64,000 bases of DNA, taken from contig JAJEEU010000034.1 in NCBI GenBank assembly GCA_022820825.1, forward strand, positions 5,030 to 69,029, in the 5' to 3' direction. This document shows positions 5,183 to 54,123 of the stretch, one piece after another. The notes beneath the pieces are model-generated. The model saw nothing but the letters and a program-made list of their open reading frames with translations. It searched no databases and had not been told where the DNA came from. Origin of the DNA: Vicinamibacteria bacterium. GTDB taxonomy: Bacteria > Acidobacteriota > Vicinamibacteria > Vicinamibacterales > UBA8438. Position 1 is the first letter of the stretch, and each line of letters opens with the position of its first letter. Made by a program: the position numbers and the translations under genes.

Positions 5183-5189
5183 CGGCGAA

Positions 5190-9570: not shown

Positions 9571-9585
9571 GCCACGGGCCGCCAT

Positions 9586-12009: not shown

Positions 12010-12038
12010 TCGACGGTCGCTTGGAGAGGAAGCGCCCC

Positions 12039-20972: not shown

Positions 20973-21000
20973 ACGGCCGCCCGCCGCGGCGGGGCCGCTG

Positions 21001-23303: not shown

Positions 23304-23393
23304 CGGACCGACTCCTTCGGGATTGGCCGGCAGCACGATCCGTGAGCCGGCGTTGCGCCGTTCCCGCCGCCGCGCGCCGGAGCGAGCGCGGCC

Positions 23394-27908: not shown

Positions 27909-29239
27909 TCATTACCAGGAAGGCCATCTCGCGCCGCACGGTGCTGCGTGGACTCGGCACGACGCTCGCGCTGCCCCTGCTGGACAGCATGGCGCCTGCG
28001 CTGACCGCCGCCGGCAAGACTGCCGCCGGCACGACGCACCGCCTCGGCATCGTCTACGTGCCGAACGGGATCGTGATGGAGCAGTGGACGCCGGCGACCG
28101 AGGGCGCCGGGTTCGAGCTCACGCCGACCCTCAAGCCGCTCGAGCGGTTCCGGGAGCGCATGACCGTGGTGACGGGCCTCAGCAACAGGGGTCCCGACTT
28201 TGCCCACGAGACCGGCTCCACGAGCTTTCTGACCGGTGTATCCCCCAAGCGCACGCAGGGCGCCGACCTGCAGGCCAGCGTGTCGATGGACCAGCAGGTG
28301 GCCAAGGCGCTGGGACAGCACACGCAGCTCGCGTCGCTGGAGCTCGCGCTGGAGTCCGGCGACGAAGTCGGCACGTGCGGGGCGGGCTACACGTGCGCCT
28401 ACACGAACACCATCAGTTGGCGCAGCGCGACAACGCCGCTGCCGATGGAAATCAACCCGCGCGCGGTCTTCGAACGGCTGCTGGGCGACGTCCGCAGCAC
28501 CGATCCGGCCGCGCGGCTCGCCCGCATCGAGCAGGACCGCAGCCTGCTCGACGCCGTGACCGACAAGATCGCGCGGCTGCGGCGCGATCTCGGAGCGCGC
28601 GACCGCAACAAGCTCGGCGAGTACCTGGACGCCGTGCGGGACATCGAGCGGCGCATCCAGATGGCCGAGGCGCAGGTCGACCAGCCGCTCCCGGAGATGG
28701 CGCCGCCGGTGGGCATCCCGGCCACCTTCGACGAGCACGCGAAGCTGATGTTCGACCTGCAGGTGCTGGCGTACCAGGCCGACCTGACGCGCGTCATCAC
28801 GTTCATGGTGAGCCGCGAGTTCAGCAGCCGGACCTATCCGGAGATCGGCGTGCCCGAGGCGCACCACCCGACCTCCCATCACCGCAACGATCCGGAGAAG
28901 ATCGCGAAGCTCGCCAGGGTCAACGCGTATCACACCACCCTGCTGGCGTACTACCTCGACCGGCTGCAGGCGACGTCCGACGGGGAGGGCTCGCTGCTCG
29001 ATCAGATGACGCTGCTGTACGGCTGCGGGCTGAGCGACGGCCAGCGGCATTCCTCGGATAATCTGCCCGTCCTGGTGGTAGGCGGTGCGGGCGGCCGGCT
29101 CGGCGGCGGGCGCCACCTGCGGTACCCCGGAACGACTCCCATGTCGAACCTGCACCTGACCCTGATGGACTCGGTCGGCGTGCCCGTCGACAACTTCGGC
29201 AACAGCACCGGACCGCTCGACGCGGCGTTGAGCCTCTGA
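27905..29239 (+). CDS. DUF1552 (HxxSHH) family protein (triad 3)
   Basis: MIITRKAISRRTVLRGLGTTLALPLLDSM, with motif PEAHHPTSHHRND. In the track it is hidden inside a longer ORF (26666..29239). Confidence 0.85.
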   Translation: MIITRKAISRRTVLRGLGTTLALPLLDSMAPALTAAGKTAAGTTHRLGIVYVPNGIVMEQWTPATEGAGFELTPTLKPLERFRERMTVVTGLSNRGPDFAHETGSTSFLTGVSPKRTQGADLQASVSMDQQVAKALGQHTQLASLELALESGDEVGTCGAGYTCAYTNTISWRSATTPLPMEINPRAVFERLLGDVRSTDPAARLARIEQDRSLLDAVTDKIARLRRDLGARDRNKLGEYLDAVRDIERRIQMAEAQVDQPLPEMAPPVGIPATFDEHAKLMFDLQVLAYQADLTRVITFMVSREFSSRTYPEIGVPEAHHPTSHHRNDPEKIAKLARVNAYHTTLLAYYLDRLQATSDGEGSLLDQMTLLYGCGLSDGQRHSSDNLPVLVVGGAGGRLGGGRHLRYPGTTPMSNLHLTLMDSVGVPVDNFGNSTGPLDAALSL

Positions 29240-29264
29240 GCGGCGCGGCAGCACGGAGACCCGA

Positions 29265-30770
29265 ATGCGTGCTTGCGCCGCGCGCCTGGTTCCTGCGGCT
29301 TTCATCCTGACACTGGTAATCCCGATCCGGGCCGAGGAGCCCGACCTGCGGCTGGTGGAGGCCGTCCGCGCCGGCGATACGGCAGCCGTTCAGGCGCTGG
29401 TGCTGGACGGGGCGGACACGAACGCGCGCCAACCCGACGGGGCGACCGCGCTGCACTGGGCGGCCTACCTGGACGACCTCGAAGCGGCCGACTTGCTGCT
29501 CGGCGCCGGCGCTGGGGCGGACGCGGTCAACGAGCTGGGTGTCACGCCGCTCTACCTGGCGTGCGAGAACGCCAACGCGGCGTTGGTGCGGCTACTGCTG
29601 GAAGCCGGCGCGAAGCCGGACGCCGCGCTGCCCAGCGGCGAAACCGCGCTCATGACCGCCGCGCGCACCGGAAGCGCCGGTGCGGCGGCGGCGCTGGTCG
29701 CGCACGGCGCGGACGTCGACGCCCGCGAGACGACCGAAGACCAGACGGCGCTGATGTGGGCCGTCGCACAGCGGCACCCTGACGTCGTACGCGTGCTGAT
29801 CGGGGCGGGAGCGGACATCCACTTCCGATCGCGCGTCCGTCCGGTGGCCACCGCCAGCTCGCCGCGCACCGGCGCGGCGGAGGGCGTGTCGGTCATCGAC
29901 GAGGGCGGGTTCACGCCGCTGCTGTTCGCGGCGCGCCATGGGGATCTCGCGTCGGCGCGCATGCTCGTGGCGGCCGGTGCGGATCCGAACGACACGGCCC
30001 CCTCGGGCACCAGCGCGCTCGTCGTCGCGGCCCACAGCGGTCACGGTGAGCTTGCCGCCTGGCTGCTGGACCAGGGCGCCGACCCTAACGCCGCCGGGGC
30101 GGGCTACACGCCGCTGCACGCGGCGATCCTGCGCGGCGAGACCGCTCTCGCGGGCGCCCTGCTGGACAACGGCGCCGATCCGCACACCCGCTTGAAGAAC
30201 GGCAGCCCGCATGCGCGCTACGGCAAGTTCTACGCGCTGGAAACGCGGCTGACCGGCGCCACGCCGTTCTTTCTCGCAGCCAAGTACGCCCGGGCCGGCA
30301 TCATGCGGAAGCTGGCCGCGGCAGGCGCCGACACGCTGGCGCGTCACGACGGCGTGACGCCGCTCATGGCCGCGGCGGGCATGCTCACGCCGGGGTTCAT
30401 TCAGGCCGGAAACGATCGCCTCGGCCGATCCATCGACACGGCCGAGATGGAGCTCGCCCTCCGGCAGGACCCGGACGGGCGCACGCTCATGAACAGCGGC
30501 ATCGAAGCCGTGAAGGCGGCGGTCGAGCTGGGCGCGGACGTCAACGCCGTCAACGGCAACGGCGACACCGCCCTGCATGCCGCGGCGCTGCACGGCTTCA
30601 ACACCGTCGTCCGCTACCTGGTAGGCCGGGGCGCCGACCTGCACGCGGCGAACGCCCGCGGCGAGACGCCGCTCGCCACCGCGATGCGAGTCGGCCGCGT
30701 GCCGGCAAAGAGCCTGGTCTACGCAACCTCTACCGCGGATCTGCTGCGCGAGCTCGGCGCGCGGGAATAG
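29265..30770 (+). CDS. exported ankyrin-repeat protein (triad 3)
   Basis: 501 aa. The signal-like N-terminus is followed by DLRLVEAVRAGDTAAVQALVLDGADTNARQPDGATALHWAAYLDDLE and multiple ankyrin repeats. Confidence 0.85.
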   Translation: MRACAARLVPAAFILTLVIPIRAEEPDLRLVEAVRAGDTAAVQALVLDGADTNARQPDGATALHWAAYLDDLEAADLLLGAGAGADAVNELGVTPLYLACENANAALVRLLLEAGAKPDAALPSGETALMTAARTGSAGAAAALVAHGADVDARETTEDQTALMWAVAQRHPDVVRVLIGAGADIHFRSRVRPVATASSPRTGAAEGVSVIDEGGFTPLLFAARHGDLASARMLVAAGADPNDTAPSGTSALVVAAHSGHGELAAWLLDQGADPNAAGAGYTPLHAAILRGETALAGALLDNGADPHTRLKNGSPHARYGKFYALETRLTGATPFFLAAKYARAGIMRKLAAAGADTLARHDGVTPLMAAAGMLTPGFIQAGNDRLGRSIDTAEMELALRQDPDGRTLMNSGIEAVKAAVELGADVNAVNGNGDTALHAAALHGFNTVVRYLVGRGADLHAANARGETPLATAMRVGRVPAKSLVYATSTADLLRELGARE

Positions 30771-33318: not shown

Positions 33319-34764
33319 CTATTCCGTCGCTCCCAGGCGCCGCAGGAGCTCCGCCGTACGCTCGGGGTCGCGCCCCCCGCGGCGCCAGCGCGTCGTGGTC
33401 ATCGCCAGCGGCGTCCGGCCGTCGGCGTTCTCCAGGTCCAGGCCGGCGCCCCGGCCAACGAGATACTCCACCACCGAGTCGAACGCACTGGCGGCCGCGT
33501 AGTGCAGGGCCGTGTTGCCGGCGGCATTGGCCGCATGGATGTCGACGCCCAGCTCCGCCGCCGTTCTGACGGCTTCCAGCGTGCCGGCCTCCACCGCGGC
33601 CCGATCGGAACCGGGTCTCCGATGCCGCCTGGCAAGCGGCGCCATGAGGGACGTCGTCCCGTCCTCCAATGTCGCGTCCGGCTGCCCGCCGGCCGCGGCC
33701 AGCGCGCGCATCATCGCGGCGTCGCCGAACATCGCGGCCATCCAGAACGGCGTCGCGCCGACCCAGGTGTAGTCCATGGCCCAATCGCGGCTCAGGCGCC
33801 GGAACGGCGTGGGGCGCGCGAGCCGCACGTTCGGATCCGCTCCGTGATCGAGGAGCGCGCTCAGCATTTCGCCATCGCCCCGGAGCACCGCCGCGTGCAC
33901 CGCTGCATAACCTGCGCCGGCCGCGTGTGGATCCGCGCCTCGTTCCAGCAGGAACCGCGCGAGCGCGGTATGGCCGCCATGAGCCGCCACGACGAGAGCG
34001 CTGGCGCCAGTCGGCGCCGTGTCGTTGACGTCCGCGCCGGCGTCGAGCAGCAGCCGGGCCGACTCGACCTCCCCGTGCCTCGCGGCGAACAGCAGCGGCG
34101 TATAGCCGCCGCGGTCTTCCGGCACCACCATGCTGCCGCCGTCGAACTCCGCATCGCCGCCCGCGGTGCCGACGTTGACGACCACGCGCCGCACGGCCGA
34201 GCGCGCGCGGACGTCGGCGCCCTGCTCGATCAGCAACCGCACGACGCCGGGATGCCGCTGCGCCACCGCCCACATGAGCGCCGTCTGCTCTCTCGAGCCT
34301 TCCTTCGCGTTGGGGTCGGCGCCGTGGCGCAGCAGGACCTCCACGGCGTCCACCATGCCCGTGCGCGCGGCCGTCATCAGCGGCGTTTCGCCGCTGGGCA
34401 GCGCCGCGTTGGCATCCGCCCCGGCCCGCAGCAGCAGCCCGATCATCGACGCGCTGCCGTGCACGCAGGCCAGCCACAGCGGCGTGGCGCCGAGCTCGTT
34501 GACGGCGTCGACGTCCGCGGCGGCGCGGATCAGCAGGTCGGCCGTCTCGTGCTCGTCCCAATGCGCGGCCCAGTGGAGGGCGGTGGTGCCGTCGGGCTGC
34601 GTCGCGTTGACGTCGGCGCCCTCCTCGAGAAGGGCGCGCACGGCGGCGTGGTCGCGCTCCCTGGCGGCCTGCACGAGTTGCAGGTCGCTGTTGGCGGCGG
34701 CGACGCCGGCAACTGCCAGCAACACTACCGCGCAAGCACTACACGAGGCTGAGCGGTTCGACAT
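33319..34764 (-). CDS. exported ankyrin-repeat protein (triad 4)
   Basis: 481 aa. MSNRSASCSACAVVLLAVAGVAAA is followed by DLQLVQAARERDHAAVRALLEEGADVNATQPDGTTALHWAAHWDEHE and ankyrin repeats. It overlaps the upstream gene end by 26 nt. Confidence 0.85.
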   Translation of the reverse strand: MSNRSASCSACAVVLLAVAGVAAANSDLQLVQAARERDHAAVRALLEEGADVNATQPDGTTALHWAAHWDEHETADLLIRAAADVDAVNELGATPLWLACVHGSASMIGLLLRAGADANAALPSGETPLMTAARTGMVDAVEVLLRHGADPNAKEGSREQTALMWAVAQRHPGVVRLLIEQGADVRARSAVRRVVVNVGTAGGDAEFDGGSMVVPEDRGGYTPLLFAARHGEVESARLLLDAGADVNDTAPTGASALVVAAHGGHTALARFLLERGADPHAAGAGYAAVHAAVLRGDGEMLSALLDHGADPNVRLARPTPFRRLSRDWAMDYTWVGATPFWMAAMFGDAAMMRALAAAGGQPDATLEDGTTSLMAPLARRHRRPGSDRAAVEAGTLEAVRTAAELGVDIHAANAAGNTALHYAAASAFDSVVEYLVGRGAGLDLENADGRTPLAMTTTRWRRGGRDPERTAELLRRLGATE

Positions 34765-36076
34765 CCAGCGCCCCGGTGCTGACGCCGAGCTGTTCGCGGT
34801 GCACGCCGAACATCTCCAGCAGCGCCAGGTTCAGATTGGCCATCGGCGTGTCCGCGTAGGTGAGATGGCGGCCGCCCCTGACCCCTTCGCCGCCGCCGCC
34901 GGCCAGCAGCAGCGGCAGGTTGGTCCGCGCATGCGCATTGGAATCGGACATGCCGGCGCCGTAGAGAATCACCATGTGGTCGAGCAGCGATCCGTCGCCG
35001 TCCGGCGTCGAACCCAGCTTGTCCAGGTAATAGGCGAACAGGCTCACGTGATGGGTGTTGATCTTCGCCAGCTTCTCGTACAGCACGGGGTCGTGGCGGT
35101 GGTGCGAGCACGGGTGGTGCGAGTCGGGGACGCCGATTTCGTTGTAGGTGCGCCCGCTCAGCTCGCGGCCCATCATCATGGTGCTCACGCGCGTCAGGTC
35201 GGTCTGGTAGGCGAGCACCTGCAGATCGAACATCAGCCGGGCGTGATCGGCGTACGACGCCGGAATGCCGGGCGGCTGGTCGACGACCGGCAGCGCCTCG
35301 GCGCCCTGCTCCTCCGCCCGCTGGATGCGGCGCTCGACGTCGCGCACCGCGTCGAGGTACTCGTCGATCCGCGTGCGGTCGCCCGTTCCGAGCTCGCGCG
35401 TAAGGTCGGACACCGTCTCGGTCACCGAGTCGAGAATGCTGCGCTGCTCGGCGATGCGCTGCAGCCGCACCCCCGCGTCGGTGCTCCCGCTGTCGCCGAA
35501 CAGCCGCTCGAACAACGCGCGCGGGTTGTTCTCCATCGGCAGCGGGGTGGTCGGCGTGCGCCACGCGATCGTGTTCGAGTAGGCGCAGGCGAAACCGACG
35601 TCGCAGGAACCGGAGACGTCCCGGCTGTCGAGGCTGACCTCAATGGACGCGAGCTGCGTCTGCTGCCCCAGCGACCGCGCGATGTACTGGTCGATCGAAA
35701 CGCCCGCCTGCAGCTCGTACTCCGACGGCATGGCGCTCAGGCCCGTCAGGAACCGCGTGGAGGCATTCGCATGAAAGCCGCCGTTGGGCTCCGGGCCGTG
35801 CATCCCGGAGAGGACGAGCAGGCGATCGTGGAACTGCTCCAGGGGTTCGAGGATGCGCGTGAGCTCGAAGCCCGCGCCTTCGGTGGCCGGTGTCCAGTGG
35901 CTCATCGCAATCCCGTTCGGCACATAGACGACGCCAAACCGCCGCGGCGCGCTGGCCGGCGTCTTCCGCAACGCCGCAAACGCGGGCACCATGCCGTCCA
36001 GCAACGGCAGCGCCAGCGATACGCCCAACCCCCGCAGCACGGTACGCCGGTGGACGGCCTTCCTGGTGACGATCAT
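34739..36076 (-). CDS. DUF1552 (HxxSHH) family protein (triad 4)
   Basis: MIVTRKAVHRRTVLRGLGVSLALPLLDGM, with motif PDSHHPCSHHRHD. The start overlaps the upstream stop (ATGA at 36073-36076). Confidence 0.85.
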   Translation of the reverse strand: MIVTRKAVHRRTVLRGLGVSLALPLLDGMVPAFAALRKTPASAPRRFGVVYVPNGIAMSHWTPATEGAGFELTRILEPLEQFHDRLLVLSGMHGPEPNGGFHANASTRFLTGLSAMPSEYELQAGVSIDQYIARSLGQQTQLASIEVSLDSRDVSGSCDVGFACAYSNTIAWRTPTTPLPMENNPRALFERLFGDSGSTDAGVRLQRIAEQRSILDSVTETVSDLTRELGTGDRTRIDEYLDAVRDVERRIQRAEEQGAEALPVVDQPPGIPASYADHARLMFDLQVLAYQTDLTRVSTMMMGRELSGRTYNEIGVPDSHHPCSHHRHDPVLYEKLAKINTHHVSLFAYYLDKLGSTPDGDGSLLDHMVILYGAGMSDSNAHARTNLPLLLAGGGGEGVRGGRHLTYADTPMANLNLALLEMFGVHREQLGVSTGALDVEPLSLV

Positions 36077-38628
36077 GACTGTGAGCTCCTCATCTGAAAC
36101 GGCGCGCTCCTGGCGATTCCCAGGACGATCGCGGACCAACGATAGTCGTTTTCGGCGGCCTCGCGCACTATGCCTCGAACGGCAGGCATGTCGTAGTGCT
36201 CTATGCCACGGCCGAGCGCGTAGGTCAACAACTTCTCGGTAACCGTGCGCACGAACTGCTCGCGGCGGTCGTGCAGCAGATCCCGCAGCCCCGCCAGCCC
36301 GGCGATGCGCGTGCCGTCCGGCAGCACCGCCGACGGATCGATGGCGGCGCCCTCGTCGACCGCGCGCCAGGCGCCGGTTGCGTCGAACGACTCGAGCGTG
36401 AACCCCAGCGGATCGATCGACGCGTGGCAGCCGGCGCACGCGGGACTCCGCCGATGCGCCTCCAGGCGCTCGCGCACGGTGGCGTGCTCCCCGTCCGCGC
36501 CACGCTCTGGCAGCGCCGGCACGTCCGCCGGGGGCGGCGGCGGGGGCGTGCCGAAGATGTTCTCGAGCAGCCACTTGCCGCGCAGCACGGGCGACGTGCG
36601 GTTGGGATACGAGGTGACGGTCAGCACGCTGCCGTGGCCGAGCAGTCCCCCGCGCCGCCCGTCGCTCCAGGCCACGCGGCGGAAGCGGTTGCCGTACACG
36701 TTCGGCACGCCGTAGTGCCGCGCCAGCCTCTCATTGAGATACGTGTAGTCGGCGCTCAGCAGCTCCGGTACGCCGCGATCCTCGCGAATCTGGCTCTCGA
36801 TGAAGAGCCGCGTCTCCTGCAGGAGCGCTGCGCGCAGGTTGTCGTCGAAGTCGGGAAACTCGGCGGGGTCCGGATACACGGTCTCGACGTTGCGCACGTG
36901 GAGCCATTGGCCCGCGAATCCGTCGACCAACGTCGCCGCCCGCGGATCCGCCAGCATGCGCCGCACCTGGCGTTCCAGCACGCCGGCGTCCCGCAGCTCG
37001 CCCCGCGCCGCCGCCTCCAGCAGCTCGTCGTCCGGGATGCTGCTCCACAGGAAGAACGACAGCCGCGAGGCCAGCTCCAGGTCGCTGACCCGATAGGGCG
37101 CGCCCGGCGCCGCGTGCGGCGCGTCGCGCTCGATGCGGAACAGGAAGTTCGGGTCGACCAGCAGCCGTTCGAGCGCCAACTGGATGCCCGCGTCGAAGCT
37201 GCCCTTCTCCCGGCCCGCGGCATAGAACTCCAGCAGGGTCTGCAGTTGCCGGTCCGTGGCGGGCCGGCGGTACGCCGCAGTCGCGATCCGGGTGAGGATC
37301 CTGATGGCGCAGGCCTGCTCGTCCGCGGCGCGCAGCGGGCGGCAACCGAAAATCGCGTTGCGGCTGGGCGTCTCCCCCACCCCTTCCTGCGCGTAGGGGC
37401 CGCTGATGACGACGCTGCCCACCGCCGGGAAGCCGTCCGGCATGGCGTCGATGGCCAGGGCGAAACCGTACGGACGGGGCTGGAGCACGCCGTCGGGCTC
37501 CCAGAGCTGCCGCAGGAACGCCACGACCACCCGGCGGGGCCCGGCCTGCACCGGCAGGCGCAGCACCAGATCCTCGTCCGCATGCTGCATGTAGTGCTCC
37601 CATTCGAGGCTGCCCAGGATGTTGCCCTCGTAGCTCTCCGGGGCGGCGCCCGGCGCGCGGTACTGCGTGCGCTGCCCGGCTACCCCGAATGCGAGCTGAC
37701 CCCGCGCCGGCGCCGGCGCCGCCGTCGTGTCGCGCGGCGTGCCGGGCGCTGCCGCGTCCGCGTCGGCCGCGGGGGCGTCTCCGCCCACGGTGAACAGCTC
37801 GACGCGCTGTCCGTCCAGGCGGACCTCGACCTGATGCGCCGAGTTCAGGCCGCGAATGTAGTCGACGTAGTTGGTCTGCAGATCGACCCTGATGACGTAT
37901 TCGCCGTCGACGGGAAAGTTGTGGGTGAAGGCGGCGCCGCCGCGCGAGCCGAGCGGAAAGTCCTCGCTCAGGCGATCCTCCTGCACCAGGTTGATGGGGA
38001 CGTCGTAGGTCTCGACGACCGGCTGCTGCGGCAGTCCCACGGCAAGCCGGCTGACCTTCCGCGCGGCCGACAGGTAGCGCTCCATCAGCGCCGGCGAGAC
38101 CGTCAGCACGCCGGCCATGTTGTCGAATGCGTAGCCCGGCGCGTCGGCCGGCAGCAGCTCGGCGACGTCGACGTCGAGCGCCAGCAGGTCGCGGACGGCG
38201 TTCTGGTACTGCCCCCGGCTGAGGCGGTGGAACGCGGCGCTGCGCCCCGGGTTGGGGCTGGCGGCGGCCGCCTGATCGAGCGACGCTTCAAGCTGCGTGA
38301 CGAAGGCGTCGAACGCGGCCTGATCGGGCCGTGGACGACCAGGTGGCGGCATCGCGCCCATCCGGATTTTCCGGATTACCCGCTCCCACACCTCGGCTCC
38401 GGCGCCCACGCTCGCCGTGTCGATCGTGTCGAGCGCCAGGCCGCCGGTCCGCAACCTGTCGTTGTGGCAGGTCACGCAGTACCGATCGAGGAGCGGCCGC
38501 AACTGCGAGGCTGGAGGGGAATTCGAAACCGTGGACGCCTGCTGCGGGCTGCCGGCATGCAAGGGCGCCGCACACAGCACCGCAACGCCCGCTGCGAAGG
38601 CCGCCGTCCCACCCTGGCCCCGGCGCAT
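36073..38628 (-). CDS. DUF1592/DUF1588/DUF1585-type di-haem cytochrome c domain protein (triad 4)
   Basis: RYCVTCHNDRLRTGGLALD and SPACAGCHASIDPLGFTLESFDATGAWR carry the CxxCH motifs. Start is taken at MRRGQGGTAAFAAGVAVLCAAPLHA (38628); an alternative ATG is at 38673. Confidence 0.8.
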   Translation of the reverse strand: MRRGQGGTAAFAAGVAVLCAAPLHAGSPQQASTVSNSPPASQLRPLLDRYCVTCHNDRLRTGGLALDTIDTASVGAGAEVWERVIRKIRMGAMPPPGRPRPDQAAFDAFVTQLEASLDQAAAASPNPGRSAAFHRLSRGQYQNAVRDLLALDVDVAELLPADAPGYAFDNMAGVLTVSPALMERYLSAARKVSRLAVGLPQQPVVETYDVPINLVQEDRLSEDFPLGSRGGAAFTHNFPVDGEYVIRVDLQTNYVDYIRGLNSAHQVEVRLDGQRVELFTVGGDAPAADADAAAPGTPRDTTAAPAPARGQLAFGVAGQRTQYRAPGAAPESYEGNILGSLEWEHYMQHADEDLVLRLPVQAGPRRVVVAFLRQLWEPDGVLQPRPYGFALAIDAMPDGFPAVGSVVISGPYAQEGVGETPSRNAIFGCRPLRAADEQACAIRILTRIATAAYRRPATDRQLQTLLEFYAAGREKGSFDAGIQLALERLLVDPNFLFRIERDAPHAAPGAPYRVSDLELASRLSFFLWSSIPDDELLEAAARGELRDAGVLERQVRRMLADPRAATLVDGFAGQWLHVRNVETVYPDPAEFPDFDDNLRAALLQETRLFIESQIREDRGVPELLSADYTYLNERLARHYGVPNVYGNRFRRVAWSDGRRGGLLGHGSVLTVTSYPNRTSPVLRGKWLLENIFGTPPPPPPADVPALPERGADGEHATVRERLEAHRRSPACAGCHASIDPLGFTLESFDATGAWRAVDEGAAIDPSAVLPDGTRIAGLAGLRDLLHDRREQFVRTVTEKLLTYALGRGIEHYDMPAVRGIVREAAENDYRWSAIVLGIARSAPFQMRSSQS

Positions 38629-43679: not shown

Positions 43680-45418
<1,739 letters not shown>

Positions 45419-45422
<4 letters not shown>

Positions 45423-45649
45423 CCGCCGCCGCGGGCGCGGAGGGCGGCGATGATCTCGTCGTGCTCGGGGAAGCGTTGCTCGTCGTGCTTGGAGAAGATC
45501 AGGTCGCCGTCGGCCACGACGTCGAACACGCCGTTGTCCCCTTCTATCAGCTCGGCATCGACGCCGAGCGCGCTGCTGATGGCGGCCGCCAGACCGGAGG
45601 CCCTGGGCAGGTACTTTCAGCGGGTGCAGTAGGTTATCGACAGCGTCAT
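45419..45649 (-). CDS. SelW/Rdx-family selenoprotein (CxxU), in-frame TGA at 45619-45617 read as selenocysteine
   Basis: Not in the ORF track. GGAGGA lies 5 nt before the ATG at 45649. Translation: MTLSITYCTR-U-KYLPRASGLAAAISSALGVDAELIEGDNGVFDVVADGDLIFSKHDEQRFPEHDEIIAALRARGGG. This matches the Rdx-family pattern (YCxxU.Y..RA......L ... G.F.V..dG.liFSK....rFPe..ei). GC3 stays high across the TGA. Confidence 0.75.
45586..45610 (-). promoter_or_regulatory. candidate bacterial SECIS-like hairpin downstream of the UGA
   Basis: RNA after the UGA: AAGUAC-CUG-C-CCAGG-GCCUCCGG-UCUGG-CGG. Stems are CUG/CGG (one G-U) and CCAGG/UCUGG, with a bulged C and an 8-nt loop containing GG. It starts 7 nt after the UGA. 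Hand-folded only. Confidence 0.4.
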
Positions 45650-45705
45650 CCGGTTCCTCCCGTGACCTGTATGTTACGCCCCCTGCGCGGCGGCGTCGAC
45701 CGTTT

Positions 45706-46890
45706 CTATGCGATGCCGGCGGCGCGCCACCCGGCGACGGTCGCGGCGTCGTAGCCGAGCTCCCGCAGGATCGACTCGGTATGCGCGCCCAGCTCCGGAA
45801 CTCCCTCCATGCGCGGCGCTACTCCATCGATGGTGGCGGGCGGGATCAGCGAACGCACCGGACCGGCGCTGGTCGCCACCTCGCGCCAGCGGTCGCGCGC
45901 GGCGAGCTGCGGATGGTCCGCGAACTGCTCCACCGTGTTGAGGCGGGCGTTGGCGATGCCGGCCGCGTCGAGGCGCTCGGTCGCCTCCTCGGCGCTCAGC
46001 GCCGAGAACACGCCGTCGATTTCCCGGTCGAGCGCCTCCCGATTGGCCGGACGCCGGGTGCTGGAATCGAAGCGCGGATCCGCTGCCAGCTCCGGGCGGC
46101 GCAGCACCTCCGCGCAGAAGCGCGCCCACTCGCGCTCGTTCTGGATGCCGAGCAGCACCGCTTCCCCGCCGGCGCACGCGTACGGCCCGTACGGGGCGAT
46201 GGTGGCGTGGTGCGCGCCGCTGCGCGGCGGCGGCGATCCTCCGTACACCGTGTAGTGGAGCGGAAAGCCCATCCATTCGCCGAGGGCTTCGAGCATCGAG
46301 ACCTCGATGGCCGCGCCCTGCCCGCTCCGCTCCCGCGCGTAGAGCGCCGTCAGCACCCCGGTGTAGACGTACATGCCGGCCGCGAGGTCGGCCACCGGGA
46401 TGGCCAGCTTCACGCACTCGTCCGGCGTGCCGGTGATCGACATGACGCCCGACTCGGCCTGCACCAGCAGGTCGTACGCCTTGCGGTCGCGGTACGGCCC
46501 GCTATTGCCGTAGCCGGACAGGCCGCACACGACGAGCCGCGGATGCGCGGCGCGCAGCGCGTCGCCCCCCAGGCCCAGGCGCTCCGCCGCGCCTGGCGCG
46601 AGATTCTGGACGAACACGTCGGCGCGGCCGATCAGCCGCCGCAGCGCGTCCGCCGCCTCTGGCCGCTTGAGGTCGAGCGTGAGCGACTCCTTCGAGCGGT
46701 TCAACCAGACGAAGTGGCTCGACAGCCCGTGCACGGTGTCATCGTACGCCCGGGCGAAGTCGCCGGTCCCGGGGCGCTCGATCTTGATCACCCGCGCCCC
46801 GAGGTCGGCGAGCTGGCGGGTGGCGAACGGAGCGGCCACCGCCTGCTCCAGCGACACCACGGTGACGCCGTCGAGCGGCCGCGCGCCCAT
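45706..46890 (-). CDS. family III CoA-transferase (CaiB/BaiF-like)
   Basis: Start re-called to MGARPLDGVTVVSLEQAVAAPFATRQLADLGARVIKIERPGTGDFAR, overlapping the upstream stop by 1 nt (TGATG). The fold is typical: ..NRSKESLTLDLK...DVFVQNLAPG. Confidence 0.85.
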   Translation of the reverse strand: MGARPLDGVTVVSLEQAVAAPFATRQLADLGARVIKIERPGTGDFARAYDDTVHGLSSHFVWLNRSKESLTLDLKRPEAADALRRLIGRADVFVQNLAPGAAERLGLGGDALRAAHPRLVVCGLSGYGNSGPYRDRKAYDLLVQAESGVMSITGTPDECVKLAIPVADLAAGMYVYTGVLTALYARERSGQGAAIEVSMLEALGEWMGFPLHYTVYGGSPPPRSGAHHATIAPYGPYACAGGEAVLLGIQNEREWARFCAEVLRRPELAADPRFDSSTRRPANREALDREIDGVFSALSAEEATERLDAAGIANARLNTVEQFADHPQLAARDRWREVATSAGPVRSLIPPATIDGVAPRMEGVPELGAHTESILRELGYDAATVAGWRAAGIA

Positions 46891-48056
46891 CAGAACGACC
46901 GCGGCAGGCCGAGCACGTGCTGGCCGATGTAGGACAGGATGAGATTGGTGGATATCGGCGCCACCTGGTAGAGGCGGCACTCGCGGAACTTGCGCTCCAC
47001 GTCGTACTCCGCGGCGAAGCCATACCCGCCGAACGTCTGCACGGCCGCGTTGGCCGCCTCCCAGGCGGCGTCGGCGGCCAGCAGCTTGGCCATGTTCGAC
47101 TCCGCGCCGCACGGGCGGCCCGCGTCGAACAGCTCCGCGGCCTTGATGCGCATCAGGTCCGCGCTCTCGACGTTGACGTGCGCGCGCGCCAGCGGGAACT
47201 GGACGCCCTGGTTCTTGCCGATCGGCCGGTCGAACACCACGCGCTCGTTGGCGTAGCTCACGGCCCGCTCGATGAACCAGCGCCCGTCGCCGATGCACTC
47301 GGCGGCAATCAGGATGCGCTCCGCATTCAGCCCGTCGAGCAGGCAGCGGAAGCCGCCGCCCTCGGGTCCGATCAGATTCGCCGCCGGCACTTCGAGGTTG
47401 TCGAAGAACATCTCCGTCGTCGCGTGGTTCATCATCGCCCGCAGCGGACGGATGGTGAGGCCGTTGCCCACGGCCGTCCGGAGGTCCACGAGCAGTACCG
47501 ACAGCCCCTGGGTCTTCTTCTCCACCTGCTCCAGCGGCGTGGTGCGGACGACCAGCAGCAGCAGGTCGGAATGCTCGGCGCGGGAGGTCCAGACCTTCTG
47601 GCCGTTGACGACGTAGCGGTCGCCGTCCCGCACCGCGGACGTCCTGATCCTGGTCGTGTCGGTGCCGCTGGTCGGCTCGGTCACGCCGAACGCCTGCAGG
47701 CGCAGCTCGCCGCTTGCGATGCGCGGCAGGTATTCGCGCTTCTGCGCCTCCGAGCCGTGCCGCAGCAGCGTGCCCATGATGTACATCTGCGCGTGGCAGG
47801 CGGCCGCGTTACCGCCAGAGCGGTTGATCTCCTCCAGGATGATCGACGCCTCCTGCACGCCGAGCCCCGATCCGCCGAACTCGGCCGGGATCAGGGCGGC
47901 GAGGTAGCCGGCCCCGGTCAGCGTTTCGACGAACTCGCTGGGGTATGCCTCCCGGCGATCGAGGTCCCTCCAGTAGCTGCCGGGAAAGCGGCCGCACAGG
48001 TCGGCTACCTCGCGGCGGAGATCACGGTGGAGATCGGTGTTCGATGCGGCTGACAA
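46890..48056 (-). CDS. acyl-CoA dehydrogenase
   Basis: 388 aa. Motifs: GVTEPTSGTDTTRIRTSA, GQKVWTSRAEHSDLLLLVVRT, QTFGGYGFAAEYDVERKFRECRLYQVAPISTNL. Confidence 0.9.
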   Translation of the reverse strand: MSAASNTDLHRDLRREVADLCGRFPGSYWRDLDRREAYPSEFVETLTGAGYLAALIPAEFGGSGLGVQEASIILEEINRSGGNAAACHAQMYIMGTLLRHGSEAQKREYLPRIASGELRLQAFGVTEPTSGTDTTRIRTSAVRDGDRYVVNGQKVWTSRAEHSDLLLLVVRTTPLEQVEKKTQGLSVLLVDLRTAVGNGLTIRPLRAMMNHATTEMFFDNLEVPAANLIGPEGGGFRCLLDGLNAERILIAAECIGDGRWFIERAVSYANERVVFDRPIGKNQGVQFPLARAHVNVESADLMRIKAAELFDAGRPCGAESNMAKLLAADAAWEAANAAVQTFGGYGFAAEYDVERKFRECRLYQVAPISTNLILSYIGQHVLGLPRSF

Positions 48057-48570: not shown

Positions 48571-49602
48571 CTACCGGGAGGCGGCTTCCGCCGCCTCGCG
48601 CGCCCGCTCGCCCGCCAGCATGTTCGGCATGCTGTAGTTCCCCTCGTGGCAGGCGTATTCGAACATGGCATCGTCGGTGCGCAGCATCGGAATCGATACC
48701 GTCCAGGGCCGGCTCCAGATGCCGGGGTCGTCAATCGTGGCCACGTACTCGAGCGTGTCGGCGTCGATGCGCCTGAACCGCTCCACGAGCCGCAGGTCGC
48801 CGGTCGTCCGCAACCGGCCCATCGGGTTGGCCGTGGTCCACAATCGTTCGGCGACGAAGTTCGCCGTCTCGACAACCAGGGTGTCGCCGTCCCAGCGGCC
48901 GCGCGCGTCCCCGGCCCACTGCCGCATGTGGGCCGGCAGCGCGGGACGGCCGTCCAGCGGAATGACGCGCACCGTATGGATCATCTCGGCCACCAGCAGC
49001 ACCCAGTCCTCGTTCTGCACCACGAGCAGGTTCTGGTTGTAGGCTGCCGGGAGGATGGGCGGGCCGTTGTTGACGCCGATCAGGCAACGGTCGGTGCCGT
49101 CGAAGTCGAGCCACGAGTCGGCCGGATGCTCCCGTTGATATTCCCTGTCGCGCTCGACCTTGCGCCGGCCGGCGTCCGAGTATGCCGGCAGCCGCCCGTT
49201 CGGCGGATCGACGACCAGCGACGTGCGCCGCGTGCCGACCGTGCGCGTGCCGGTGTCCAGCCAGAAGTTGTTGTAGAACCCCGGCGTGCCGTCGGCGCGC
49301 TGGTCCACGCTGCCGCCGGCGGCGGTCGTCTCGGGCGGCCGGGTCAGCAGGTACTCGTTGCGGTCGATGACCGCCTGCTCCTGGCTCGCGGCCTCCTCCT
49401 CCGTGAGGAATTCCCTGTCGCCCAGCTCCTCGGGCCGCTCCAGGGGCGTGATCGTGCGGTGGTCCCACATGCCCTGCAGGTCGGGATGGCCCCAGGGCGT
49501 GCGCAGCGCGTCACTCTGGGCGAACGCCGGCCCGCCGGCGAGCGCGACCGCGCCGGCAAACAGGGCCGCGCAGGCTACCCGCGTTCGAATCGGTCGAGTC
49601 AT
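48571..49602 (-). CDS. secreted 'YACHEGN' family protein, paralog 6 of 7
   Basis: RBS AAGGAGG precedes MTRPIRTRVACAALFAGAVALAGGPAFA. Motifs: LRTPWGHPDLQGMW, SLVVDPPNGRLP, DRCL, EMIHTVRVIPLDGRP, ARGRWDGDTLVVET, FEYACHEGNYS. Confidence 0.85.
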   Translation of the reverse strand: MTRPIRTRVACAALFAGAVALAGGPAFAQSDALRTPWGHPDLQGMWDHRTITPLERPEELGDREFLTEEEAASQEQAVIDRNEYLLTRPPETTAAGGSVDQRADGTPGFYNNFWLDTGTRTVGTRRTSLVVDPPNGRLPAYSDAGRRKVERDREYQREHPADSWLDFDGTDRCLIGVNNGPPILPAAYNQNLLVVQNEDWVLLVAEMIHTVRVIPLDGRPALPAHMRQWAGDARGRWDGDTLVVETANFVAERLWTTANPMGRLRTTGDLRLVERFRRIDADTLEYVATIDDPGIWSRPWTVSIPMLRTDDAMFEYACHEGNYSMPNMLAGERAREAAEAASR

Positions 49603-49651
49603 CTCGGTCCTCCTTCTCGTCGGCGCGTCACGGCGCCGTCCGCGGCCACGG

Positions 49652-50689
49652 CTACTCGCGCGCCTCTTCCGCACGTGCGCCCGCCAGGATGTTGAACAGG
49701 CCGTAATTGCCCTCGTGGCACGCGTACTCGTACAGCGGCAGGTCACTGCGGCTCATCGGCAGGCGGCCGGTCAGCGTGCGCGTGAACGTTTGCGGATCGT
49801 TGATCGTGAACTCGTACTCCAGCGTGCCGGCGTCCGTGCGCGTGAAGCGCTCCGTCAGGTGCAGGGAGCCGCCGGTGCCGAACGCCATCGAACGGAAGCC
49901 GCCCAGCTCGGAATCGAACGCCATCGGGCTGAAGCTGGCAACCTTGTCGGTGAAGTTCGTCGTCTCCACGACCAGCGTATCGCCTTCCCACCGGCCGCGC
50001 GAGCTGCCCAGCCACTGGCGGATGCCGGACGGCAGGGCCGGGCGCCCGTCCACCGGGACGACGCGCACGTCGTGGACCATCTCGGCGAGCAGCACGACGT
50101 AGCCCTCCGCCTGGAAGATCTGGATGTTGTTGTTGTAGCCGCCGGGCAGCATCGGCGGACCCGTGCTGAAGCCGACGATGCAGCGCTCGGCCAGGCCGCG
50201 GTCCTCCGGGCCGTCCGACCCGACGCCGGTGGCGCGCAGACGGACCGGTCGCTCGCCGGCGTCGCGGTGCGCCGCCGCCCGGCGCTGCTCCGCCTCCGTC
50301 CGCGGCGGGATGCGGCCGTCCGGGGGATCGACGAGCAGCGACGGCTGCGTCAGCGCCTCGGCCCGCGAACGCTCGGTCCAGAACGACTGGTTGTAGCCGC
50401 CGGTCTGCCCTTCTGGCGGGCGCGTATCGTCCCGGCCGACCGCCTCGTCGCTGAGGCGCTGCGCGATGACGGCCGCCTCCTCCTCGGTAAGCACATCCCG
50501 GCCCGCCAGCTCGGCCGGCTTCTCGAGCGGCGTGAACGTCCAGTACTCCCACACGCCCTGCAGGTCCGGATCGCCCCACGGCGTCCGCGGCGCCGCGCCG
50601 GAGGCGCCGCCCTGCGCGGCCAGCGGCGCGACAGCCAGCGCCACGAGCATGGCAGCCAGCGCCGCCGTGCCGATCGATACAAGCTTCAT
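49652..50689 (-). CDS. secreted 'YACHEGN' family protein, paralog 7 of 7 (tandem with paralog 6)
   Basis: RBS GGGGAGG precedes MKLVSIGTAALAAMLVALAVAPLAA. Motifs: PRTPWGDPDLQGVW, SLLVDPPDGRIP, ERCI, EMVHDVRVVPVDGRP, SRGRWEGDTLVVET, YEYACHEGNYG. Confidence 0.85.
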   Translation of the reverse strand: MKLVSIGTAALAAMLVALAVAPLAAQGGASGAAPRTPWGDPDLQGVWEYWTFTPLEKPAELAGRDVLTEEEAAVIAQRLSDEAVGRDDTRPPEGQTGGYNQSFWTERSRAEALTQPSLLVDPPDGRIPPRTEAEQRRAAAHRDAGERPVRLRATGVGSDGPEDRGLAERCIVGFSTGPPMLPGGYNNNIQIFQAEGYVVLLAEMVHDVRVVPVDGRPALPSGIRQWLGSSRGRWEGDTLVVETTNFTDKVASFSPMAFDSELGGFRSMAFGTGGSLHLTERFTRTDAGTLEYEFTINDPQTFTRTLTGRLPMSRSDLPLYEYACHEGNYGLFNILAGARAEEARE

Positions 50690-50731
50690 TTGACGCCTCC
50701 CCTTCCGTTGCACGGTCCGTACTCGATGCGC

Positions 50732-51379
50732 CTAACCGGTTACCGCGCGCGGCTCCAGCCCTGCGCCGAGACCGTCGCCTCCCTGGACCAGCAGCCGCCG
50801 GTACAGGTCCAGGTTGTACACGCCGAACCATGCAAAGAACACCAGGCCGCTGATGCCGGTCGTCGGGTCGGTGAGCGAGAACGATTCGTTCAGCAGCCGA
50901 TACACGCCGACGGCGTATCCGGCCAGAAGACCGGCCTGCACGAACGCCCCGAGCGCATAGTCGAGCGACTTGCGCCGGTTGCGGGCGATCAGCCACAGGT
51001 AGGCAAGCGCCACGGCGGTAATGTAGAAGTGCAGCGGCCCGACGTAAGCCTCGAACCAGACGCGGCCGGTGTAGTCCAGCTCTTCGACGATCAGCGTCTT
51101 GAAGGCGACGGCCAGGGAGTTGGCCGCCAGGAAGCAGAGGGCGTAACAGACGCCCAGCCAGACCACCCGCGACAGGCGCGACCTGCGCAGCATGCGGTTG
51201 CGGTCGAACGTACCGTAGAGCCGCCAGAACAGAACGACCGAGGCGGCCGTCATCAGCGGTATGTAGACGTACGCCTCGAAGAACCCCAGCCCGCGGAGCC
51301 AGAGCAGTAGCGGGGCCAGCGCCGCGCCCAATCCGTTGGCGTAGGTGACAGGCTCGCTCAGGCTGTCCGCGAACGACAC
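50732..51379 (-). CDS. integral membrane protein, unknown family (about 6 hydrophobic segments)
   Basis: GTG start at 51379 is preceded by GGGGAGGGAG. Hydrophobic stretches include LGAALAPLLLWLRGLGFF, IPLMTAASVVLFW, VVWLGVCYALCFLAANSLAV, FYITAVALAYLWLIA, GAFVQAGLLAGYAVGVY and GLVFFAWFGVY. Confidence 0.6.
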   Translation of the reverse strand: MSFADSLSEPVTYANGLGAALAPLLLWLRGLGFFEAYVYIPLMTAASVVLFWRLYGTFDRNRMLRRSRLSRVVWLGVCYALCFLAANSLAVAFKTLIVEELDYTGRVWFEAYVGPLHFYITAVALAYLWLIARNRRKSLDYALGAFVQAGLLAGYAVGVYRLLNESFSLTDPTTGISGLVFFAWFGVYNLDLYRRLLVQGGDGLGAGLEPRAVTG

Positions 51380-51405: not shown

Positions 51406-52665
51406 TTACTGCGCCTGCTCCTCCACCGGCTCGATACGCAGAAGCGCGCCGTCGTCCTCGTCGGTCAGGGCGTAGATCAGGCCGTCCGGCCCCTGCTTCA
51501 CCTCGCGGATCCGCTGCTTCAGCTCGCGCAGCAGCGACTGCTGCCGGACCAGCAGGCCGCGGTCGTTGAAGATGAGCCGCTGGATCTCGGCGCCGCGCAG
51601 AGCACCGACGAACAGGTCGCCCCGCCAGTTGGGGAACTTGTCGCCCGTGTAGAAAAACATGCCGGCCGGCGAGATCGAGGGATTCCAGAAAAAGATCGGG
51701 TCCTCGATCCCCTCGGCCTGCCGCGCGGTCTGCTGCGGCCCGGAATGCGTCCCGGTCAACTCTCCCGAGTAGGCCCGGCCATAGGAGACGACGGGCCAGC
51801 CGTAGTTCGCGCCGGCGCGGATGATGTTGACCTCGTCGCCGCCCTGCGGCCCGTTCTCGGTCTCCCACAGCTCGCCGGTCTCGGGGTGGAACGCGAGGCT
51901 GTTCGCATTGCGAATGCCCAGGGCATAGATCTCCGGACGGTGGCCCGGCGTGTCGACGAACGGATTGTCGTCGGGCACGCTGCCGTCGTCGTTGAGCCGC
52001 AGCATCTTGCCGGCGTGGTTGGACGGATCCTGCGCGTAGTCGGCCGAGCCCACCTCGTAGCGGGCGGGCTGGCCGACCACCATGAACAGCTTGCCGTCCG
52101 GGGCGAAGATGATGCGCGAGGTCTGCGCCGCGCCCATGTAGTCGGCGTCCGCCACGAACAGGTCGCGCGTCTCCACCAGCGCGCCGCGGCCGTCGAACTT
52201 GCCGCGCGCGAGGACCGTCGTGGCGGCCAGCCGGTGCCTGGGGCTGGCCCGGTGGTACGTGAAGTAGACGAACTGGTTCTCCTCGTAGCGCGGGTGGAGC
52301 GCGATGTCCATCAACCCCTTGCGGCGCGGCGTGAACACCTCCGGGATGCCGGCGAGCGGTTCGGGGTCGAGCACGCCGTCGCGCACGATGCGGAGCTGGC
52401 CGCCGTGCTCGGTGATCAGGATGTCGCCGTTCGGCAGGAAGGCGAGCGACCAGGGCCGGTTTAGCCCCTTCATGGGCACGACCCGGAACGTCTGCTCCTG
52501 CGTGTGGAATACCTGCGGCTCGGGCGACAGCGCGCCCGACAGCGGGCAGTCGGGACAGTCCGTTCGCCGCTCCGTCTCCTGCGCCCCGGCCGGCGCGAGC
52601 GGCGCAGCCAGCATGGCGAGGACGGCGACGGCGACGAATCCGCGAGGCGCGGTCAGATTCAGCAT
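51406..52665 (-). CDS. PQQ-dependent sugar dehydrogenase (soluble glucose/sorbosone dehydrogenase family), copy 1
   Basis: RBS AGGAG precedes MLNLTAPRGFVAVAVLAMLAAPLAPAGA. Motifs: LNRPWSLAFLPNGDILITEHGGQLRIV, GLMDIALHP, YALGIRNANSLAFHPETGELWETENGPQGGDEVNII..GANYGWP. Confidence 0.85.
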   Translation of the reverse strand: MLNLTAPRGFVAVAVLAMLAAPLAPAGAQETERRTDCPDCPLSGALSPEPQVFHTQEQTFRVVPMKGLNRPWSLAFLPNGDILITEHGGQLRIVRDGVLDPEPLAGIPEVFTPRRKGLMDIALHPRYEENQFVYFTYHRASPRHRLAATTVLARGKFDGRGALVETRDLFVADADYMGAAQTSRIIFAPDGKLFMVVGQPARYEVGSADYAQDPSNHAGKMLRLNDDGSVPDDNPFVDTPGHRPEIYALGIRNANSLAFHPETGELWETENGPQGGDEVNIIRAGANYGWPVVSYGRAYSGELTGTHSGPQQTARQAEGIEDPIFFWNPSISPAGMFFYTGDKFPNWRGDLFVGALRGAEIQRLIFNDRGLLVRQQSLLRELKQRIREVKQGPDGLIYALTDEDDGALLRIEPVEEQAQ

Positions 52666-52785: not shown

Positions 52786-52885
52786 GAGTCCCCAGCCGCG
52801 CACAGCGCGGCTCGGCAAGCGCGGCGCGGGGCAACGGGGTCCCCGCTAGCGCTGGCCGGGGGCTTGGGGCGCAGCCCCATCTAAC
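52786..52885 (-). repeat. structured GC-rich repeat, copy C
   Basis: The reverse complement reads CGTTAGATGGGGCTGCGCCCCAAGCCCCCGGCCAGCGCTAGCGGGGACCCCGTTGCCCCGCGCCGCGCTTGCCGAGCCGCGCTGTGCGCGGCTGGGGACTC. It overlaps the last ~13 codons and the stop of the CDS ending at 52846. Confidence 0.85.
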
Positions 52886-54123
52886 GAAGGCTCGATGCGC
52901 AGCAACGCGCCGTCTTCCTCGTCCGTCAAGGCGTAGATGAGCCCGTCCGGCCCCTGCTTCACGTCGCGGATGCGCTGCTTGAGCTCGCGCAGCAGCGTCT
53001 GCTGGCGCACCAGCAGGCCGCGGTCGTTGAAGATGAGCCGCTGGATCTCGCGCGAGCGCAGCGCGCCGACGAACAGGTCGCCCTTCCAGTTCGGGAAGCG
53101 GTCGCCCGTGTAGAACAACATGCCCGCCGGGGAGATCGACGGATTCCAGAAGAAGAACGGATCCTCGATCCCCTCGGCCCATACCTGCGGCCTCTGCGGC
53201 CCGGAGTCGGTGCCGGTCAGATCGCCCGAGTACGCCCGGCCGTACGACACGACCGGCCAGCCGTAGTTGCGGCCGGCGCGGATGATGTTGACCTCGTCGC
53301 CGCCCTGCGGACCGTTCTCCGTCTCCCACAACTCGCCGGTCTCGGGGTGGAACGTCAGCCCGTTCGAGTTGCGGATGCCGAGCGCGTAGATCTCCGGCCG
53401 GTGGCCCGGCGTGTCGACGAACGGATTGTCGTCGGGCACGGTCCCGTCCTCGTTGAGCCGCAGGATCTTGCCGGCGTGGTCCGCCGGGTCCTGCGCGCTC
53501 TCGGCCACGCCGACGAGGTTGCGCAGCGGCACGCCGATGACCATGTACACCTTGCCGTCCGGCCCGAACAGAACGCGCGCCGTCTGCGCCGTTCCGGAGT
53601 AGGCCGCGTCCGAGACGAACAGGTCGCGCATCTCCATGACCGCGCCGCGGCCGTCGAACTTGCCGCGCGCGAGGACCGGCGTGCCGGCCATCCGGTGCTC
53701 GGGGCTCGCCTTGTGGTAGGTGAAGTAGACGAACTGGTTCTCCTCGTAGCGGGGGTGCAGCGCGATGTCCATCAGTCCCTTGCGCCGCTGGTAGAACACC
53801 TCGGGCATGCCGTCGAGGGGCTCCGGATCGAGCACGCCGTCGCGCACGATGCGGAGCCGGCCGGCATGCTCCGTGATCAGGATGTCGCCATTCGGCAGGA
53901 ATTCAAGCGCCCAGGGCCGGACCAGGCCCCGCATCGGCACCACGCGGAACGTCTGCTCCTGGGTGTGGAACACCTGGGGCTCCCACGACATCGTTTCCGG
54001 CGGCGGGCAGTCGCCGCAGTCGGTCCGCGGCTCGGGGTCCTGGGCCGCTGCCGGCGCCGCCAGGAGGGCGACCGCCGCGAATGCAAGCGCAAGCGTTCCG
54101 TTCGGCATCTTTGCCTTCGACAT
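52846..54123 (-). CDS. PQQ-dependent sugar dehydrogenase, copy 2 (tandem paralog)
   Basis: RBS AGGAG precedes MSKAKMPNGTLALAFAAVALLAAPAAA. It is collinear with copy 1 (LVRPWALEFLPNGDILITEHAGRLRIV ... YALGIRNSNGLTFHPETGELWETENGPQGGDEVNII..GRNYGWP). The C-terminal tail ...SLDGAAPQAPGQR is encoded by repeat copy C. Confidence 0.85.
   Translation of the reverse strand: MSKAKMPNGTLALAFAAVALLAAPAAAQDPEPRTDCGDCPPPETMSWEPQVFHTQEQTFRVVPMRGLVRPWALEFLPNGDILITEHAGRLRIVRDGVLDPEPLDGMPEVFYQRRKGLMDIALHPRYEENQFVYFTYHKASPEHRMAGTPVLARGKFDGRGAVMEMRDLFVSDAAYSGTAQTARVLFGPDGKVYMVIGVPLRNLVGVAESAQDPADHAGKILRLNEDGTVPDDNPFVDTPGHRPEIYALGIRNSNGLTFHPETGELWETENGPQGGDEVNIIRAGRNYGWPVVSYGRAYSGDLTGTDSGPQRPQVWAEGIEDPFFFWNPSISPAGMLFYTGDRFPNWKGDLFVGALRSREIQRLIFNDRGLLVRQQTLLRELKQRIRDVKQGPDGLIYALTDEEDGALLRIEPSLDGAAPQAPGQR

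Follow-up and report, generated by a model that had tools for sequence, protein, structure and literature searches.

A very probable selenocysteine codon in a SelW-like (Rdx family) gene of a Vicinamibacterales-type acidobacterium

Does the TGA at the eleventh codon of a short reading frame beside ggt end translation, or is it likely to specify selenocysteine? The question is raised by a 64-kb stretch of acidobacterial DNA (the window, which is the whole of the DNA analysed here), in which an ATG at 45649-45647 on the minus strand opens MTLSITYCTR, a TGA follows as codon 11 at 45619-45617, and the same frame then runs on for 65 sense codons to a TAG at 45421-45419. A first-pass annotation had read this arrangement as a selenoprotein gene behind a GGAGGA ribosome binding site, and each of these elements, from the GGAGGA and the ATG to the 65 further codons, was confirmed by the sequence and its translation. 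The evidence of the sequence and its relatives makes it very likely (a probability of about 0.93) that the gene at 45419-45649 (minus) is intact and encodes a 76-residue SelW-like (Rdx) selenoprotein. The features of the locus are the following.

45419..45649, minus strand: SelW-like (Rdx family) selenoprotein CDS, very probably intact, 76 residues; from the translation, PF10262, TIGR02174 and orthologs in 80 loci.
45617..45628, minus strand: predicted CxxU redox motif, TGC (Cys8) ACC CGC TGA (Sec11); from conservation of the TGA and alignment with the CxxC of PDB Rdx proteins.
45584..45602, minus strand: bacterial SECIS-type hairpin; from covariation, RNAalifold and an energy of -10.7 kcal/mol.
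45655..45660, minus strand: Shine-Dalgarno sequence GGAGGA, 5 nt before the ATG; from the sequence and its conservation in orthologs.
45671..45699, minus strand: candidate promoter, TCGACG (45699-45694), a 17-nt spacer and TAACAT (45676-45671); from comparison of six orthologs.
45419..45422, both strands: CTAG, the overlapping TAG stops of the selenoprotein gene (minus) and ggt (plus).

Around the start, the minus-strand DNA reads ...cacgGGAGGAaccggATG ACG CTG TCG ATA ACC TAC TGC ACC CGC TGA AAG TAC CTG..., with the TGC of Cys8 at 45628-45626. Translation of 45649-45419 (minus) gives MTLSITYCTR*KYLPRASGLAAAISSALGVDAELIEGDNGVFDVVADGDLIFSKHDEQRFPEHDEIIAALRARGGG*, where the asterisks stand for the TGA and the TAG; with selenocysteine (U) at the first of these, the product would begin MTLSITYCTR-U-KYLPRASG and end in ALRARGGG. 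The gene converges on ggt, the gamma-glutamyltranspeptidase gene at 43680-45422 (plus), whose TAG occupies 45420-45422, and the two stops do interlock in the CTAG as first described. A mechanical list of ORFs holds no minus-strand ORF at this position, because the first start codon past the TGA leaves just 36 codons, and the description of the gene as one missed by stop-to-stop calling was apt. Listed in its place are just the 60-aa plus-strand ORF at 45450-45632 that had been pointed out earlier and long GC-rich spurious frames.

Codon composition passes through the TGA without a break, as had been claimed: GC3 is 0.90 in the 10 codons before it and 0.92 in the 65 codons after it, with GC2 at 0.43. 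The site is also singular within the window. A refined six-frame scan kept an in-frame TGA only where a redox-type residue stood near it (C/T at -3, C/S/T at +3, or an adjacent C), where the flanks on either side had coding-type GC3/GC2, and where the frame stayed open for 25 codons or more downstream. It returned exactly one site in the 64 kb, the TGA at 45619-45617, and hence no second selenoprotein gene in the window. The sites given by a first scan for interrupted genes were gene junctions only.

The assignment of the predicted product to the Rdx, or SelW-like, family is supported by profile searches in which Sec was entered as Cys in the 76-aa protein, the check that the first-pass annotation had proposed. 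The protein scores above the curated cutoffs of both Pfam Rdx PF10262 (64.5 bits, E = 1.1e-17, cutoff 22.6; residues 3-71 against profile positions 2-73 of 74) and NCBIfam TIGR02174 CXXU_selWTH (46.7 bits, cutoff 34.2), and the portion after the TGA alone gives 41 bits against Pfam Rdx. Against the equivalog model NF041051 SelTWH_Campy, which scores highest of the NCBIfam models, it reaches 83 bits (E = 1.3e-23, residues 4-70), below the cutoff of 88; the window gene is related to that subfamily but is not that equivalog. A sequence search of the PDB matched the Cys-type bacterial Rdx proteins 3dex, 2oka, 2fa8, 2ojl, 2obk and 2p0g and human MIEN1 (2ljk; phmmer E = 5e-6 against the window protein). 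The YCTQC of 3dex, 2oka and 2fa8 aligns onto YCTR-U, which places Sec11 opposite the second Cys of CxxC and agrees with the CxxU reading of the motif given at the outset.

The predicted fold is that of the family. The structure considered is an AlphaFold2 model of a full-length ortholog, P0001, which is 81% identical to the window protein (pLDDT 77.9), and it has the elements beta1 (3-8), alpha1 (14-28), beta2 (32-37), beta3 (42-46), beta4 (49-53) and alpha2 (63-73), with the redox motif (residues 8-11) between beta1 and alpha1. In Foldseek, the P0001 model matched 2fa8, 2obk, 3dex, 2ojl, 2oka and 2p0g with TM scores of 0.86-0.89, followed by MIEN1, mouse SelW (2npb) and thioredoxins (E = 2e-3 to 8e-3 for MIEN1 and SelW). 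The model thus supports a minimal thioredoxin-like fold, beta1-alpha1-beta2-beta3-beta4-alpha2, for the product.

Set against known systems, the gene resembles the bacterial SelW-like selenoproteins (PF10262, formerly PF05169; TIGR02174) in its size of about 75 aa, in a CxxU right after beta1, and in having both an in-frame TGA and a SECIS hairpin within the CDS; nothing essential differs. What marks the Vicinamibacterales clade to which the gene belongs is the signature ITYC-[TGV]-R-U-[KN]-Y, a hairpin of the form GCC-NCC-(A/G)GU(C/U)U-GGN-GGC, and the fact that its members are unannotated or truncated in public gene calls. The Cys-containing Rdx proteins of known structure, Atu0228 (2fa8), a P. 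fluorescens protein (2obk), SAV_2001 (3dex), a PA3349-type protein (2oka), 2ojl and 2p0g, share their fold with the ortholog model but have Cys for Sec, are some 25-30 residues longer and show only 18-28% sequence identity. Mammalian selenoprotein W (2npb) and MIEN1/C17orf37 (2ljk) also have the Rdx thioredoxin-like fold, with CxxU (SelW) or CxxC in the same place; however, the eukaryotic SECIS is placed in the 3' UTR and has no structural relation to the small hairpin inside the ORF of the window gene.

How far the TGA extends among relatives is partly hidden by the way in which they have been annotated. A protein-database search returned 24 relatives, nearly all of 41-61 aa and starting just past the TGA site, the mark left by gene callers that treat this codon as a stop; in L084, a metagenome contig identical to the window over this region, a 36-aa product is called. 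Searching one genome per species brought up 397 relatives, the best of them 83% identical, of which the top 80 loci were retained. Most of these are from Vicinamibacterales MAGs (an order of Acidobacteriota), the others from Myxococcota, Gamma- and Betaproteobacteria, Planctomycetota, Spirochaetes and Desulfobacterota, and 79 of the best 80 carry in-frame ...ITYCxx*[KN]Y.... A codon survey of 83 sequences (the window and 82 loci, taken from the best 80 of the 397 relatives and from L001-L003) has TGA at the codon after C-x-x in 81, the window included, in at least six phyla and with ITYC kept upstream in frame. ATG, GTG or TTG stands at the aligned start of 80 of 81 loci, and an SD-like motif precedes it in 71 of the 81. 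When codons were compared one by one with those of close orthologs, synonymous and non-synonymous differences were about equally numerous, from too few sites to be informative.

The syntenic contig L001 reads GTG...YCAR-TGA-KYLP; on it the Rdx gene comes after those for acyl-CoA dehydrogenase and then family III CoA-transferase, and is followed in turn by an inserted gene for a metallophosphatase, by ggt and by that for a TonB-type receptor. The search for Cys at the Sec codon of orthologs, suggested with the first description, met with TGA in 81 of the 83 sequences and two exceptions of other kinds, CGA (L003) and a deletion (L040), while Cys does stand opposite Sec11 in the solved Rdx homologs 3dex, 2oka and 2fa8. 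L003 (1130-1360 on a TARA scaffold, the source of protein P0001) has the CGA (Arg) together with a TAC-to-TGC change (Tyr7-to-Cys) that gives C-C-I-R-R, and Leu replaces the near-invariant Pro of RFPE; its SECIS-type hairpin is still intact. Recent inactivation of this copy, or an assembly with many errors, is the probable cause. In L040 (3001-3207 on the Vicinamibacterales chromosome OZ219745.1) an in-frame deletion of 9 nt has taken out the Sec codon, turning R-U-K-Y into H, and the hairpin and the remainder of the gene are kept. Both look damaged, rather than like alternative forms.

A stop codon that is to be read as selenocysteine in bacteria is expected to be followed closely by a SECIS element, and a hairpin of this type lies within the coding sequence:

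45602-45596, minus strand: 5' arm, GGCCUCC.
45595-45591, minus strand: apical loop, GGUCU.
45590-45584, minus strand: 3' arm, GGCGGCC.

The stem is of 7 bp including one U.C mismatch, which is present in the window and in most orthologs, and 21 nt separate the UGA from the loop. The energy is -10.7 kcal/mol, and in 74 of 81 orthologs it is -7.5 kcal/mol or lower. In an alignment of 81 orthologous segments, 75 columns without gaps and with the UGA at columns 13-15, the near-invariant core is the GCC-NCC-(A/G)GU(C/U)U-GGN-GGC given above, and 86.7% of cells are paired in the helix 31-36/42-47. The pair 33:45 is CG in 59 sequences, UA in 8, GC in 6, AU in 3 and UG in 3, with 1 unpaired, so that 17 double changes stand against a single unpaired case. 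Columns 33 and 45 each fall on the third base of an Ala codon, where no protein constraint applies. The pair 34:44 is a mismatch in most sequences and GC, UA, AU or UG in 21. The covariation score is 0.136 compared with 0.036 in shuffles, none of 500 shuffles reaches it, and slid controls are all lower. Compensatory changes occur in unrelated clades, namely a Vicinamibacterales subclade, Planctomycetes, a Gammaproteobacterium and a Vicinamibacteraceae subclade. An unguided RNAalifold prediction gives this helix as well and adds a loop-closing 37:41 A-U/G-U pair. In 79 of 81 sequences the loop codon is AGT or GGT, both of them rare choices in the genes of the window (70% G+C), where AGT makes up 2.9% of Ser codons and GGT accounts for 4.4% of those for Gly.

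This helix is not the one first proposed. The claim that a hairpin follows the TGA stands, in that one exists and overlaps the proposed position, but the register folded by hand, 45610-45586, is a different and less conserved one; the conserved helix is 45602-45596/45590-45584. Single-sequence folding near 45570-45620 had been offered as a check; the MFE fold of 45560-45625, which is close to the original register (45610-45586), was no better than shuffles (z = -0.35). A helix of this MFE type was also tried on the alignment and rejected, 15-55 of 80 sequences being unpaired at several of its pairs and its score barely above shuffles. No Rfam family was found at gathering thresholds in the whole window, and at E <= 10 the matches in 45300-45800 were at chance level only.

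The bSECIS model sets limits of 3-9 nt for the loop, 4-16 bp for the stem, 16-37 nt for the spacing and an energy of -7.5 kcal/mol or lower (PMC13188914, Fig 2A), and requires a G in the first two loop positions, as N1-G-[G/U]-N-N2 with N1 and N2 pairing (PMC13188914, Fig 2A). The window hairpin lies inside every one of these limits, with its loop of G-G-U-C-U, its spacing of 21 nt and its -10.7 kcal/mol. It is like the SECIS elements of E. coli fdhF and fdnG and the bSECISearch consensus in lying just downstream of the UGA and in having G-U in a small apical loop. It differs from the E. coli elements in showing no sequence similarity to them and in having an internal U.C or A.C mismatch instead of a bulged U. 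The hairpin downstream of the TGA is thus, from comparative sequence evidence, a covariation-supported SECIS-type element and a candidate for SelB binding. The conserved TGA, present in 81 of 83 sequences, and the covarying hairpin together support the earlier reading of the codon as selenocysteine.

The genes for selenocysteine decoding would be expected elsewhere in the source genome. SelA, SelB and SelD are absent from the roughly 48 genes of the window in a Pfam scan, the E. coli proteins SelA, SelB and SelD had no tblastn match in the 64 kb, and ARAGORN found no tRNA of any kind there, hence no tRNA-Sec; nor did it find a tRNA-Sec within 3 kb of the gene in the loci of 81 relatives. When the same three E. 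coli proteins were searched with tblastn against all fetched loci, selD appeared in L053 only. In that Desulforhabdus MAG, selD (151-1062, minus; 45% identical to E. coli SelD) adjoins the SelW-like gene (1336-1548, plus). Acidobacteria are known to include selenoprotein-containing species (PMC1794560, Table 2). The intact gene, its conserved TGA and its conserved SECIS hairpin argue that the source organism, a Vicinamibacterales-type acidobacterium, is probably a selenocysteine user.

Three other readings of the locus have been considered; each is unlikely and together they account for a few per cent. The one that survives best, at long odds nonetheless, is that the UGA is recoded to something other than selenocysteine, for example by near-cognate Trp or Cys read-through, or that Sec decoding has been lost and the gene is decaying. 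The lack of sel genes within the 64-kb window of the source genome would fit either version, and the public protein of one relative (P0003) has W at the Sec position. However, that W is most simply a gene call under genetic code 4. In the window, TGA is a normal stop elsewhere, being the true stop of 15 of the 36 other genes, so that there is no genome-wide reassignment and the recoding is local. Against a non-Sec residue there is also the catalytic Cys at the homologous position of solved Rdx proteins, and a hairpin that fits the SelB-type SECIS model down to the G-U dinucleotide of the loop, whilst a loss of decoding is at odds with a gene, Shine-Dalgarno sequence and hairpin that are all intact in the window.

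Less probable again is a pseudogene, a former CxxC Rdx gene killed by a nonsense TGA and now giving only a 10-residue peptide. The stop does lie in frame at codon 11, the 64-kb window has no Sec machinery, and two relatives look damaged at this place (L003, with CGA and the lost Pro, and L040, with its 9-nt deletion). Yet independent nonsense mutations would not hit one codon repeatedly, and decay would follow them. Across at least six phyla, 81 of 83 sequences have their TGA at the identical codon, the protein is conserved on both sides of it in the same frame with GC3 unbroken, and a covarying hairpin stands at SECIS distance. The weakest reading, with next to no likelihood, makes the real gene a short ORF past the TGA (36 aa from an internal GTG, 41-61 aa in relatives) and the first 10 codons an untranslated leader; public calls for relatives do begin past the TGA site and the 36-aa product is called in the identical contig L084, but such a product would be without beta1, the redox motif and most of alpha1, making the Rdx fold impossible, no Shine-Dalgarno sequence precedes the internal GTG whereas the upstream start has GGAGGA in the window and is ATG, GTG or TTG in 80 of 81 aligned loci, and the ITYC before the TGA is shared, as protein sequence, by different phyla.

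For the selenoprotein gene, then, expression would be expected to proceed as follows. Translation would start at the ATG at 45649 behind the GGAGGA, and at the UGA of codon 11 the hairpin within the coding sequence may recruit SelB carrying Sec-tRNA(Sec), so that selenocysteine would be inserted in place of termination. The resulting Cys8-x-x-Sec11, predicted to lie between beta1 and alpha1 of the thioredoxin-like fold, could reversibly form a selenenylsulfide, and the protein would likely act as a thiol- or glutathione-dependent oxidoreductase.

The gene may have a promoter of its own. Upstream of it on the same strand lie two genes, one for an acyl-CoA dehydrogenase (46890-48056) and, ending 56 nt away, one for a family III CoA-transferase (45706-46902). 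Six close orthologs retain in this gap TCGACG, a variable 17-nt spacer and TAA-n-n-T, and then GGAGG, which is invariant in all six, and the start codon. Both hexamers are invariant or nearly so in these orthologs, and the match to the sigma-70 consensus is at only 8 of 12 positions. A promoter and terminator scan of 45200-45900 found nothing above its thresholds. As far as conservation goes, TCGACG-17 nt-TAACAT looks like a dedicated sigma-70-type promoter and is a candidate for one.

The neighbouring ggt is the only lead here with some novelty. Among the fetched loci of relatives, 13 have it no more than 3 kb from the SelW-like gene, and in the Vicinamibacterales loci the two genes converge. 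In L067, an unrelated Gammaproteobacteria MAG, ggt (1321-2973) is instead 27 nt upstream of the SelW-like gene (3001-3219) on the same strand, and the two look like an operon. This neighbourhood hints at a glutathione-related role, and the observation, now old, that mammalian SelW binds glutathione would fit. Functional coupling of the selenoprotein to gamma-glutamyltranspeptidase is nevertheless doubtful on gene order; if it were true, the family would act in glutathione or gamma-glutamyl turnover.

The wider surroundings of the gene have features of their own. Four copies of a three-gene cassette lie within 40 kb, at 1380-6380 (minus), 7984-13385 (plus), 25488-30770 (plus) and 33319-38562 (minus). 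Its genes encode a large multidomain PSD/PSCyt protein (DUF1592/1588/1585/1587/1595), in some copies with an N-terminal cytochrome c motif, a DUF1552 (HXXSHH) protein and an ankyrin-repeat protein of 400-530 aa; the L001 contig also has a PSD-type gene nearby. Tandem glucose/sorbosone dehydrogenase (GSDH) paralogs are found at 51406-52665 and 52846-54108 (both minus), with a PQQ beta-propeller dehydrogenase in the same stretch at 60822-62579 (minus). Runs of well-biased coding ORFs (222-468 aa) at 20034-24383 (minus) and 48571-51379 (minus) have no Pfam match at E <= 1e-5.

SelW-like CxxU proteins were described in 2005 as the most abundant prokaryotic selenoprotein family in Sargasso Sea data (PMC1088965) and were the most abundant in the GOS data too, with 427 Sec forms and 56 Cys forms (PMC2398784); their distribution is marine and environmental (PMC1088965, PMC2398784). 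They have models of their own in NCBIfam. As an intact and ordinary member of this long-known and very common family, the window gene is an annotation fix rather than a discovery, and it leaves knowledge of selenoproteins in general unchanged; what is new is the missed annotation and the clade-specific description of the SECIS hairpin only. The annotation is corrected for a gene that ORF and gene callers miss or shorten, an error repeated in most public relatives. The ortholog set provides a clean comparative definition of the SECIS hairpin of this clade, which could improve selenoprotein calling in Acidobacteriota MAGs.
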